From Escherichia coli (GTDB lineage Bacteria; Pseudomonadota; Gammaproteobacteria; Enterobacterales; Enterobacteriaceae), in the NCBI GenBank assembly GCA_902499925.1, contig GCA_902499925.1_4130.1: a DNA stretch of 64,000 nt. The stretch is one strand, 5' to 3'. Below are positions 16,646-18,683 of the stretch, one piece after another (within the stretch, counting starts at the first letter, position 1; every line of letters starts with the position of its first letter). Under the pieces are notes generated by a model. That model did no database searches. It was given only the letters and a program-made list of their open reading frames with translations, and was not told the origin of the DNA. The translations under genes and the position numbers were made by a program.

Positions 16646-17008
16646 CGTTTTAATCTCTCTTAATGTGTAGCGGGAAGTGTTCCCGCTCTCGATGTAAAAC
16701 ATTATACGCTTTTATCAGTACGGTGCAAGTACTTTCTACAAATACTTTTAAAATAGTTTTCTTTCTATATAGGGGAACTATTATTCAGTACTGCAACCAT
16801 CCAGGGGAACTATCTTTCTATATAGTAGTACTATCATTCAGTACTGAATCAATCCACCAAATCATCCCGATACCCCGTAAAACGGCCTCAGACGCATTCT
16901 AACGCATTAATACACCTAAGCTATACATTTGCACCATTCCAATCATTCCAGGGCTTTACTGGCCGTTTAAACGCGTTAAATTATTTTCAATTATTTTGTT
17001 TTTAGCTA

Positions 17009-17036
17009 TTGACTCAGTACTAAAAAAGCGTATAAT
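17009..17036 (+). promoter_or_regulatory. plus-strand sigma70-like promoter
   Basis: TTGACT-16-TATAAT on plus strand inside the non-coding island. Confidence 0.4.
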
Positions 17037-17223
17037 TACTACATAGACGCGAGAAAGCGGATACCCCAGGGGGTGGGAAGATCCGTCCAAAATTCATAAA
17101 ATTTAAAAAGGATACACTCCCGCACCCTAGCAGGTCAAAGCACTTTCTCAGTACTGAAATATAGTACCATAGTCCGGCCCAGGATAGCAAGCAAATTAAT
17201 TAAAACTTTTTGCTTCCAGGGTA

Positions 17224-17251
17224 TTGCTTTATTTTTCCAGTACTGTATAAT
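17224..17251 (+). promoter_or_regulatory. plus-strand promoter-like box
   Basis: TTGCTT-16-TATAAT on plus strand; CCCACCGGGTGC box downstream. Confidence 0.35.
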
Positions 17252-17469
17252 AGTTCCATCAAGTCGAGAAAGACTCAAGCCCACCGGGTGCATAGTTACG
17301 CCCAAAATTCAGTACTGAAAAAATTTTTAAAAATATCCGTCCAGGCCGTTGACATTGCCCCCAGTTTATAAGATAATGATTCCAGATTCAGAAAAATCTA
17401 ACTCCAGATACTGCGGGGAAACTATCCCCACGCGGTAGGGGAACTATTGGAAAAAACAAAATAAAATTT

Positions 17470-17660
17470 TGATTTAGCCGTCTATACTTCCAGACGTGTA
17501 ACCATCTAGCCGTTTAGCCGTCCAAACGTCTAGCCATCCAGCCATCCAGAAATCTAGCCGTTTAGCCGTCTAGATGGATAGCCATCTTTACTTCCAGACT
17601 TCTGGAGGGCTAGACATATCTACGTCCAAAATCCATCCAGGGTAACTACGCCCAAAATCC
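17470..17660. repeat. iteron-like direct repeat cluster
   Basis: Closely spaced copies of TAGCCGT(T/C), TAGCCATCC, CCATCCAG and CGTCCAAA(A). Confidence 0.5.
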
Positions 17661-18683
17661 GTCAGTACTATACCATAGATCTATCTTTTGAAAGGGAGTA
17701 TTCAGTACTGCCATCATAGCCCTCACTATGTTACCCTAGGAGGATGAAGACTATCATGTAGTACTGAATACTGTTAGAGGGAATCCACCAGCTTGTGCTG
17801 GTGGCATAATGCTTTAGATTAAAATCAGTACTGATACCATTCTGTTAATACCAGTACTGTTATTACGATTTTCATATGAGGTTCAAAAAGATGTACCACC
17901 ACAGGAGGAACTATCTTTTCTGTACTGTCTCACGACAGGAGGTAGAGTAAATGAATTGTTCGCAGCAACTCATCTCTCTATGTAGAACATTATACAGTAC
18001 TGAATCATAATGTCAATAACTTTCTTTCACCATTCAGTACTGATATTCTTGAGAACTACCCGACTACAAACATCATTATATCCCACAAATCATAAACGTC
18101 CCAACGTAAATTTCAACTTTCGAAGATCCAACTTTTATTTCATAGGTACTCCAAAATTTTTAGGATCGAGATTTAGGATGGAGTACTAACCAACTTTTTG
18201 CTGGAGCCTCAAGGGGTAATGGAATTTTACCCCGAAGGGTAAAGGGGTAATTGAAATTAAGGTGAAAGTAATAATTCAGTACTAATCATTGCGTGATTAC
18301 TTTTGATTACATTTGATGTAATTTGCAAAATGGAAAAGGAGCTTGGAAACTACAAAGTACGGCAGACTTCCTCTGCCTACTTAGTGGCATATCGACACCT
18401 TCAGTACTGAATACTTTTGGGGCAGTACTGAATCCTTCCCTAGCATTCTTGAGTAATCTTGTCTATAATAATCAGTACTGAATCATATATAATCATTCTG
18501 TGATTCTACGGTGCTCATATAAATGTTTATATATGATTACTTATGACTACATATGATTACGGGGTTTAGCCTGGGGAGAATCCTAGTGATCGCATTTGTC
18601 CAGGCTGAATTTTAACATATATAACATATGTTAAAGCCTGTCCAATGCTTTCCCTGCGGAGCTTCCCCTGTCTATATGTTGAA

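Follow-up and report, generated by a model that had tools for sequence, protein, structure and literature searches.

A candidate MetJ-box super-operator in the gene-free leader at the predicted chromosome end of a jumbo coliphage

We analyzed a 64,000-nucleotide stretch of DNA (hereafter the window) from the Escherichia coli assembly GCA_902499925.1 (contig GCA_902499925.1_4130.1), and in particular a gene-free, repeat-rich island at positions 16646–18683. Comparison with sequenced relatives makes it very likely that this island holds the left physical end of a phage chromosome and the boundary of its direct terminal repeat (DTR), with the cut at 18381|18382. From 18381 down to 16646 it is, with good confidence, a functional, untranslated non-coding leader of 1.7 kb. 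Within the leader lies an array of tandem 8-bp boxes that match the operator boxes (metboxes) of the host repressor MetJ, and judging from their sequence MetJ probably binds them. Taking the parts together, we lean toward reading the island as a chromosome end plus a leader plus a MetJ-box super-operator.

Identity of the DNA and position of the chromosome end

The source phage of the window is an Asteriusvirus, that is, a PBECO4/121Q-like jumbo coliphage. The island and its flanks matched 44 phage records at 93–98% identity, all of them Asteriusvirus-type jumbo coliphages of ~350 kb (e.g., PBECO4, 121Q, phAPEC6 and fEgEco12). For fEgEco12, DTRs of 20,993 bp were determined with PhageTerm and confirmed by restriction digests (PMC13070987). 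Base 1 of that genome (AGTAGGCAGAGGAAGTCTGCC...) corresponds, on the minus strand, to window position 18381. Inside the end, 120 nt are identical except for one substitution, and outside it 10 of 11 nt match. Over the 3.7 kb compared, the two fEgEco12 repeat copies do not differ, the sequence directly before the right copy corresponds to window 18382 onward, and the first gene (1689–2108) corresponds to the window open reading frame (ORF) at 16283–16702. Because base 1 and the pre-repeat sequence of fEgEco12 meet at 18381/18382, the window represents a collapsed, concatemer-like form of the chromosome, in which bases up to 18381 are the start of the DTR and bases from 18382 on are the unique right end, with a 300-bp tail of the latter lying in the island. 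The records for vB_Ec-M-J (in which the DTR is annotated) and BF17 open with the same bases (AGTAGGCAGAGG...), and the position of the array in CRJP21 (742–942) fits the same start exactly.

The chromosome end is thus already published for sister phages, and its placement here fixes the true end and packaging junction for permuted Asteriusvirus assemblies. An initial annotation, made from the letters of the window alone, had correctly located the island between an early region and a set of paralog arrays but had missed that this junction is the chromosome end. Among the functions it listed was a packaging site, which is supported by the mapped left end and DTR boundary of these near-identical phages.

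Across nine Asteriusvirus sequences, conservation is 0.85–0.97 through the leader and 0.56–0.7 directly beyond 18370. Seven of the nine retain the predicted cut-site core, GGCAGACTTCCTCTGCCTACT|TAGTGGSATAT. The cut would fall beside a short palindrome and between two 10-bp-phased sets of TGATTAC repeats (Table 1), which had been noted from the start and are present at 18294–18310 and 18534–18560. The second set forms a conserved block (0.85) amid the variable unique tail (0.56–0.7 in between), and vB_Ec-M-J carries one additional 10-bp TGATTAC unit. We consider these phased repeats the best candidates for terminase recognition; those at 18294–18317 could be recognized by the small subunit of the enzyme or by an accessory protein. 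In such a scheme, terminase would recognize the junction via the repeats and cut it to produce the left end and the start of the ~21-kb DTR.

The absence of any ORF of 60 or more amino acids from 16903–18683 on either strand was confirmed, the longest having 59. The existence of the island was therefore borne out, but its size had been put too low (1.8 kb, from 16903). Its neighbors on either side are minus-strand genes, and the first one to the left most likely starts at the ATG at 16645, because the −10 box of its promoter lies at 16701–16706. From that start codon it encodes 120 amino acids, as annotated in 121Q, PBECO4 and vB_Ec-M-J, and it matches fEgEco12 g01, EcMJ_001 and 121Q gp266. 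Some public records give 139 amino acids instead (window ORF 16283–16702), which is less likely because that start sits inside the −10 box of the gene’s own promoter. With the first gene starting at 16645, and with a plus-strand 79-amino-acid ORF (16663–16902) disrupted in relatives, the gene-free stretch comes to ~2.04 kb (16646–18683). Curated records of relatives show an equivalent ~2-kb gap without annotation. Automated pipelines, for their part, mis-annotate small ORFs in the leader; one such ORF, g614 (fEgEco12 3260–3559), is annotated in only one of two identical DTR copies and is not open in this window.

An array of candidate MetJ boxes

The initial annotation had described an iteron-like cluster. 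An 8-bp-period cluster is indeed present at 17476–17619, but its units match MetJ boxes, not iterons. We scanned for metboxes with the weight matrix for half-boxes published by Augustus & Spicer (PMC3228920) and with their thresholds, which call for at least two adjacent in-phase 8-bp boxes, each scoring at least a quarter of the consensus score (3.145), and for a site total of at least the consensus score (12.58). The array consists of 14 consecutive in-phase boxes (17476–17587), with further in-phase boxes at 17596 and 17612. It totals 102.8 bits (3.8–10.7 per box, mean 7.3) and is the sole qualifying site in the window. As a positive control, 6 kb of E. coli K-12 sequence yielded only the metJ/metB (4 boxes, 31.2 bits) and metF (4 boxes, 24.9 bits) operators.

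Chance does not readily produce such an array: shuffled windows gave chains of at most 3 boxes versus the 14 observed, the probability that a random 8-mer attains the 9.48 bits of the commonest unit is 2e-4, and 5000 sampled column permutations of the units all scored below the observed value. The base frequencies of the 14 boxes correlate with those of 832 natural half-boxes (r = 0.95), and no unit type (AGCCGTCT/AGACGGCT, AAACGGCT, AGCCATCC/GGATGGCT or ATACTTCC) is missing from the catalogue of natural enterobacterial operators. Isolates differ in array length mostly by whole boxes: G17 has 12, the window 14, fEgEco12 15 and EJP2 over 20. The exception is CMSTMSU, whose array has a 1-nt phase shift. 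The host encodes the cognate repressor, as metJ is annotated in E. coli K-12.

Arrays in other phages

Metbox arrays recur near the ends of other phage genomes, including those of T5-like and T7-like phages unrelated to the phage of the window. In Eneladusvirus, XbC2 and CBB, metbox chains lie 650–810 nt from the start of the record. T5-like phages of Vibrio, Aeromonas and Providencia carry arrays in their terminal regions: Vibrio phage Pontus has 15 in-phase boxes (484–603 of the stretch examined) and Aeromonas phage AhSzq-1 has 28 (2441–2664 of the stretch examined). The Pontus array lies ~8 kb from the dmp end, a position that in T5 belongs to the untranslated repeat region and the injection stop signal. 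The T7-like E. coli phage PGT2 has 9 boxes in each of its 260-bp terminal repeats (38–109 and 42464–42535). MetJ itself is limited to five gammaproteobacterial orders: Enterobacterales, Pasteurellales, Vibrionales, Aeromonadales and Alteromonadales. In keeping with a role of MetJ, 95 of the 96 records matched by the AhSzq-1 array in a BLAST search are phages of three of these (Enterobacterales, Vibrionales or Aeromonadales).

Leaders of the Klebsiella relatives Muenster and fENko-Kae01 lack metboxes and contain instead 12 and 10 Fur-box-like matches, respectively (GATAATGATTCTCATT type, with at most 5 mismatches), versus ~0.3 expected. These cluster at 787–1325 and 2422–2446 in Muenster and at 711–1058 and 2342–2366 in fENko-Kae01, the place taken by the MetJ-box array in the E. 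coli and Erwinia phages. No Fur boxes were found in the island of the window. A literature search found no paper linking MetJ boxes with phage genomes or terminal repeats, and neither such a super-operator for MetJ nor its occurrence in several phage families appears to have been described.

Weighing and possible function of the array

Several observations weigh against the interpretation of the island as a chromosome end with a leader that MetJ binds. The end position is predicted from phages 94–98% identical to this one. The commonest unit of the array is AGCCGTCT rather than the palindromic consensus AGACGTCT, and C occupies box position 3 in ~36% of the symmetrized half-boxes versus 10% of natural ones. 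In three families the units share one polarity relative to the end, which a palindrome-binding dimer does not need. The sigma-70 scan found no promoter-like site overlapping 17476–17619, and there is no gene nearby, so the array is better described as operator-like DNA than as a member of the MetJ regulon. The one exception among the 96 records, XbC2, was recorded on Xanthomonas, which lacks MetJ, although it is a close relative (“twin”) of the Pectobacterium phage CBB with the same array. BLAST-based host counts are also biased by database composition and by relatedness. Finally, as T5 (whose terminal repeat has no metbox array) and the Klebsiella relatives do without it, the array is dispensable for this life style.

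If MetJ does bind, the repressor with its co-repressor S-adenosylmethionine (SAM) would coat the 14–16-box super-operator cooperatively once the DNA is in the cell. Each genome would bring two arrays with at least 28 good boxes between them, and these would multiply with replication, so that free repressor would fall and host methionine and SAM synthesis would be de-repressed as phage DNA accumulates. Sequestration of the repressor is the most likely consequence of such coating; that titration is also the purpose of the array we offer only tentatively. Alternatively, the phage could exploit a MetJ filament on its terminal DNA, as an architectural block or anchor that depends on SAM.

A broader idea, which we put forward as speculative, is that virulent phages of at least three unrelated families (RaK2-like jumbo, T5-like and T7-like) place super-arrays of operators for host metabolite-sensing regulators in untranslated terminal-repeat DNA, so that the DNA entering first would soak up the regulator and rewire metabolism or, alternatively, would couple entry or early transcription to the metabolic state of the host. 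Examples would be MetJ here, Fur in the Klebsiella relatives and DnaA in T5. If true, this would amount to host takeover by DNA decoys, acting on methionine/SAM or iron metabolism, that requires no phage protein at all. The recurrence of 14–28-box MetJ arrays at phage ends, with Fur or DnaA boxes in their stead in relatives on other hosts, points to an unrecognized interaction between incoming DNA and metabolite-sensing host repressors, and it bears on the role of the repeat-rich untranslated regions in T5-type terminal repeats.

Leader architecture and candidate RNA elements

As part of the DTR, the leader would be present at both ends of every packaged genome, where it would carry host-facing control DNA. 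Its architecture is shared beyond Asteriusvirus: gene-free leaders of 1.3–1.8 kb are found in Klebsiella phage Muenster (whose terminal repeat is a PhageTerm prediction), Erwinia phage pEa_SNUABM_12 and XbC2, and in the latter two the order of an 8-bp array followed by a conserved block is kept. A 220-bp block of the window (17030–17251) matches RaK2, K64-1 and Muenster at ~70%, and the CCATCCTAAATCTCGATCCTAAAAATTTTGGAGTACC block can also be recognized in the leaders of fENko-Kae01 and Eneladusvirus. The paper describing phAPEC6 mentions neither promoters nor repeats, and the anatomy of the leader appears not to have been described before.

Table 1. Features of the island and its borders, listed from the unique right end inward to the first DTR gene. 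Distances are from the predicted chromosome end at 18381|18382.
Feature	Position	Strand	Remarks
Long hairpin	18601..18640	-	After last gene of the unique right end (18684-18890, minus)
TGATTAC/TGACTAC phased repeats, second set	18534..18560	.	153-179 nt outside cut
Three CAGTACTG palindromes	18402..18480	.	Variable spacer, unique side of cut
Terminase cut-site core, predicted	18361..18392	.	TAGTGGSATAT on unique side
Palindrome GGCAGA-cttcc-TCTGCC	18361-18377		4 nt inside end (5-21 nt from end)
TGATTAC repeats, 10-bp-phased	18294..18317	.	64-87 nt (overall 62-100 nt) inside end; repeat family D12
GGGGTAA/TTACCCC alternative hairpins	18213..18250	.	132-169 nt from end
Conserved block CCATCCTAAATCTCGATCCTAAAAATTTTGGAGTACC	18145..18181	-	About 200-237 nt from end; conservation 0.95-0.97
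P1, perfect sigma-70 consensus TTGACA-16-TATAAT	17989..18016	-	12/12; inward; 366-393 nt from end
P1 leader RNA, predicted, ~200 nt, five hairpins	17780..17982	-	400-600 nt from end
CGYCCAAAATYC element, two copies	17617..17663	.	Adjoins array; repeat family D7
MetJ-box (metbox) array	17476..17619	.	763-906 nt from end
Conserved block TTTTCCAATAGTTCCCCTACCGCGTGGGGATAGTTTCCCCGCAG, including GGGGAAACTATCCCC hairpin	17411..17454	-	928-971 nt from end; after array in three genera
Sigma-70-like promoter TTGACA-17-GATAAT	17349..17377	+	Outward-facing; 11/12
Promoter TTGCTT-16-TGTATAAT + two-hairpin module	17224..17293	+	Covariance-model score 35.7 bits
Inward promoter-like site + two-hairpin module	17120..17194	-	Covariance-model score 20.7 bits; convergent with 17009-17078
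Promoter TTGACT-16-TATAAT + two-hairpin module	17009..17078	+	11/12; covariance-model score 36 bits
Two tandem 53-bp repeats	16760..16856	-	Each CAGTACTG + TATATAG box; repeat family D14; 1526-1622 nt from end
First DTR gene promoter TTGCAC-16-TATAAT	16701-16728	-	Feature 16670..16728
First-gene 5'-untranslated-region hairpin GCGGGAACACTTCCCGC	16670-16686	-	With promoter and start codon, 1654-1737 nt from end

The features named in the initial annotation are all present, with coordinates off by a few bases. The duplicated GGGGTAA hairpins have their arms at 18213–18250. Of the two partial copies reported of the first-gene 5'-untranslated-region hairpin, GGGGAAACTATCCCC lies at 17415–17429 with one A more than noted, while the copy at ~16803 amounts to only the GGGGAACTATC arm. 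Further copies of CGYCCAAAATYC form the 3' tails of two of the modules described below (17084–17093 and 17299–17308), and a similar element precedes the Eneladusvirus array. The 53-bp repeats, upstream of the first-gene promoter, differ in copy number among isolates and coincide with gaps and lower conservation. On the unique side of the cut, the hairpin at 18601–18640 is probably a transcript-end structure, and a weak Rfam miRNA-like match there reflects only its hairpin shape.

Because a simple sigma-70 consensus scan was not enriched overall (9 sites versus 8.6 expected from shuffles), we limit our promoter claims to three near-perfect sites, which match 11–12 of 12 positions. The strongest of these, P1, has an equivalent ~270–300 nt from the end in Muenster and pEa_SNUABM_12 (read by eye). 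The region 1005–1373 nt from the end contains one outward promoter and three promoter-plus-hairpin modules. The initial annotation had called such promoters orphans; those at 17009 and 17224 (plus strand) and at ~17161 (minus strand) each precede a two-hairpin module. Upon entry of the leader into the cell, host RNA polymerase would fire P1 and the module promoters.

The RNA predicted downstream of P1 is unusually stable, with a minimum free energy of −64.7 kcal/mol versus −43.2 in shuffles (z = −5.16). Its consensus structure is kept in seven variants, with 8 pairs showing compensatory changes on both sides. The last two of its hairpins are terminator-like: T1 (17826–17859) was flagged as a terminator, and T2, which is annotated as a terminator in phage G17, is the strong hairpin CCACCAGC-ttgt-GCTGGTGG picked out at the start, with coordinates corrected to 17785–17804. 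The loop of T2, which has an 8-bp stem, reads ACAA on the transcript strand here and TTGT in fEgEco12, 121Q and G17, a difference that looks like an inversion of the palindrome center between isolates.

The modules follow a common plan, with a helix 1 of variable 3–6-bp stem and GAGAAA-type loop (AGUC-GAGAAA-GACU in the module at 17224, CGC-GAGAAA-GCG in that at 17009) and a helix 2 of the form CCC-NNN-GGG (CCC-ACC-GGG at 17224) followed by UGC, the whole starting 10–15 nt after the −10 box. The inward module at 17120–17194 lies in the core of the 220-bp block mentioned above, which RaK2-like phages of Klebsiella conserve. We described the family with a covariance model, because MAFFT placed 3 of 11 module copies out of register. 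With it we detect 10 copies in the window; every one lies below 17300, and hence inside the DTR, and the 46 kb outside the DTR have none. It also detects copies outside the training set in fENko-Kae01, XbC2, Muenster and EJP2, often as convergent pairs. Helix 1 covaries: all 4 of its pairs change on both sides (36 cells), and its covariation score of 0.371 exceeds that of shuffles (0.135; 0 of 500 as high) and of slid controls (0.124 or lower), on an alignment that was fitted to the model. Thermodynamic z-scores of single modules are weak (−0.8 to −1.5). Copies also lie between early DTR genes, on the minus strand at 1359–1394, 4633–4661, 6968–7003, 8643–8678 and 15184–15218 and on the plus strand at 12942–12977 and 15111–15142; the convergent pair at 15111(+)/15184(−) resembles the island’s own at 17043(+)/17120(−).

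A non-coding RNA locus had been among the suggested functions, and the consensus promoter with its structured 200-nt RNA, plus the three covarying modules, support it computationally. Of the covariance-model scans proposed at the same time, that with Rfam was null, with no gathering-threshold match in the window and only chance-level ones at E-values up to 5, whereas our own model was productive as described. A tRNA scan found no tRNA or tmRNA. The P1 leader RNA and the module family are RNA candidates that appear undescribed, and in position and form the modules resemble nut/put antitermination signals.

These elements raise the possibility that the leader works mainly through RNA, with regulatory small RNAs or with nut/put-like signals for read-through of early terminators, and that the DNA repeats are secondary. 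The stability of the P1 fold and its retention across variants speak for such control, as do the confinement of the modules to the DTR in the window and their occurrence in four other genera, the covariation of helix 1, and the placement of its purine-rich GAGAAA loop 10–15 nt after promoters. In addition, RNA-seq of the related phage PA5oct revealed two highly transcribed non-coding RNAs in the DTR (PMC7318152). Set against this, the P1 and module RNAs of the present phage are computational predictions, single-module z-scores are weak, the pair counts come from an alignment fitted to the model, and no Rfam family matches. As the principal explanation of the leader, we regard RNA-level control as a minority possibility. 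Because it leaves the metbox array and the cut site unexplained, it complements the reading as chromosome end, leader and MetJ super-operator rather than replacing it.

Neighboring genes and the AGTACT palindrome

Among the ten ORFs flanking the island, only DUF7249 scored above the curated Pfam cut-off. It was matched by two early DTR proteins, paralogues encoded on the minus strand at 13912–14181 and 15951–16190 (E-values 2e-13 and 2e-11). The other eight ORFs had no match above the cut-off; matches to DUF1033 and HVO_A0114 fell below it. No ribbon-helix-helix, MetJ-like, Rep, helicase, primase or terminase domain was found by Pfam in these ten nearest ORFs.

The palindrome CAGTACTG occurs 62 times in the window versus 0.9 expected. 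Its core AGTACT, mostly present as CAGTACTG, is 12.7-fold over-represented, with 275 occurrences versus 22 ± 4.4 in dinucleotide shuffles (the next palindromic hexamer reaches 2.5-fold), and is found in promoter spacers, −35 overlaps and terminator stems as well as inside ORFs. It is densest in the leader, at 9.8 per kb. RaK2-like phages of other genera have leaders equally rich in it, and the T7-like PGT2 has no copy (9.4 expected). The terminator hairpins of the paralog arrays share the palindrome (GCCAGTACTnnAGTACTGGC followed by a T run, at 29405–29420, 30656–30672, 31883–31899, 33148–33165 and similar sites), and after each comes TAAATATAGTATAAT, reminiscent of a late promoter box of the T4 type or of a phage-specific one. 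Our guess is that a conserved phage protein reads the palindrome. A literature search for CAGTACTG returned primer noise only. Several repeats call to mind other known sites (CAGTACTG those of SlmA and LexA, TGATTAC the direct repeats of the OmpR/CpxR type, and CCCAnnGGGTGC that of NtrC), which we take to be look-alikes rather than findings.

Alternative explanations for the repeats and the island

A serious rival explanation for the array is that it, and perhaps the other repeats too, consists of phage-specific cis elements of a DNA-end process, read by a phage protein or motor, with the likeness to MetJ operators incidental or secondary. The process could be initiation or termination of packaging, duplication of the DTR, or pausing or anchoring during ejection. 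The arrays are, after all, terminal in every family examined (38–109 nt from the end in PGT2, 650–900 nt in the jumbo phages and at the injection-stop position in T5-like phages), the asymmetric AGCCGTCT units have a single polarity relative to the end in three families, and the recorded host of XbC2 has no MetJ. We nevertheless consider this explanation unlikely. What the phages with arrays have in common is a MetJ-bearing host clade, and T7-, T5- and RaK2-like phages are not known to share a specific DNA-binding packaging protein. The boxes score like genuine operators and their variation follows that of natural metboxes position by position. The distance of the array from the end varies from 38 nt to ~8 kb, and the Klebsiella relatives swap the array for clusters of Fur boxes, again sites for a host repressor. 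Lastly, none of the ten nearest ORFs encodes a ribbon-helix-helix or MetJ-like protein.

A replication origin, another of the functions first suggested, is improbable. The 8-bp cluster would then provide iterons, and the promoters would serve transcriptional activation or R-loop priming; the origins of T4 and T7 are promoter-based, the island has dense repeats and convergent promoters, and the cumulative GC skew has its minimum at ~18.6–19.0 kb. However, a head-to-tail period of 8 bp is unlike the 17–22 bp of iterons, and the units match MetJ boxes. The island has no DnaA boxes and no 40-nt stretch of at least 87.5% A+T, with one IHF-like match only, and its ten neighboring ORFs encode no Rep, helicase or primase domain. 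The switch in skew is compositional, since it falls at the junction of two gene blocks, the DTR and the unique right end, that are both coded on the same strand. The plus-strand skew changes sign at this junction (18684–23000 versus 12000–18300), and the small paralogous genes to its right have more C than G on the coding strand and a G+C content of 0.30–0.35 versus 0.37–0.44. A T5-like injection stop region was also considered and ruled out, as the window is from an Asteriusvirus and the T5 terminal repeat has no metbox array; in addition, the island lies at the outer end of the DTR and lacks DnaA boxes, whereas a T5-type signal would sit at the inner end of the repeat and have paired DnaA boxes in inverted repeats.

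Gene decay can be set aside: automated pipelines do call small ORFs in the region (g614 in one of the two fEgEco12 DTR copies, and 5–8 hypothetical proteins in WPEC3 and JP4), but the syntenic comparison with related phages, which had been proposed as a check, showed that these ORFs lose starts or frames while the DNA stays 85–97% identical (5 of 8 are disrupted in at least 3 of 8 relatives), that curated records leave the region unannotated, and that other genera keep the gene-free architecture, so ORFs broken within such well-conserved DNA give no support to decay.

Comparison with known systems

At the left end of T7, a terminal repeat and arrays of short repeats accompany the strong host promoters A1–A3, which precede the first gene. 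This end is like the island in having a site-specific end with a direct terminal repeat, a concatemer junction as the packaging substrate, and a gene-free leader of ~1 kb or more with strong inward sigma-70 promoters directed toward the early genes. It differs in that the repeat is 160 bp in T7 and 21 kb here, and in that the present leader also has outward promoters, as well as terminators directly after P1.

The two-hairpin modules are comparable to the nut (boxB) sites of lambda and the put sites of HK022, which are likewise short hairpins with purine-rich loops a few nt after early promoters. The loops are GAGAAA here and GAAAA or GAAGA in boxB, and HK022 put also consists of two adjacent hairpins. 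Unlike nut and put, the modules are present in many copies, on both strands and often as convergent pairs, and there is no similarity in sequence. Nor was a boxA or an N-like protein identified, although no search aimed at such a protein was made.

The left terminal repeat of T5 also contains a large, conserved, gene-free and repeat-rich stretch within a long DTR that carries host-takeover genes. That stretch has a cluster of boxes for a host DNA-binding protein, and it is at this position that T5-like relatives have their metbox arrays. Davison proposed, as a hypothesis only, that the T5 untranslated region, with ~8 DnaA boxes, binds host DnaA (bioRxiv 10.1101/866236). The T5 region, however, lies at the inner end of the repeat, ~9–10 kb from the chromosome end, whereas the island lies at the outer end. 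The boxes are for DnaA there and for MetJ here, and two-step injection is not known for Asteriusvirus.

The MetJ operators of E. coli (metJ/metB, metF, metA, metE/R and metK, among others) resemble the array in their tandem, head-to-tail 8-bp boxes with equal per-box scores and in the identical box variants AGCCATCC, AGACGGCT, AAACGGCT and ATACTTCC. Natural operators, in the catalogue entries and E. coli controls examined, have 2–4 boxes, overlap a promoter and control methionine genes, whereas the phage array has 14–16 boxes (28 in AhSzq-1), sits at a chromosome end and has no evident promoter overlap.

Chromosomal titration loci for DNA-binding proteins offer another parallel, for example datA of E. 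coli, a cluster of high-affinity boxes that is presumed to lower the level of free DnaA rather than to control an adjacent gene. The phage cluster differs from datA in being virus-borne, arriving at infection and targeting a metabolic repressor, which it would titrate.

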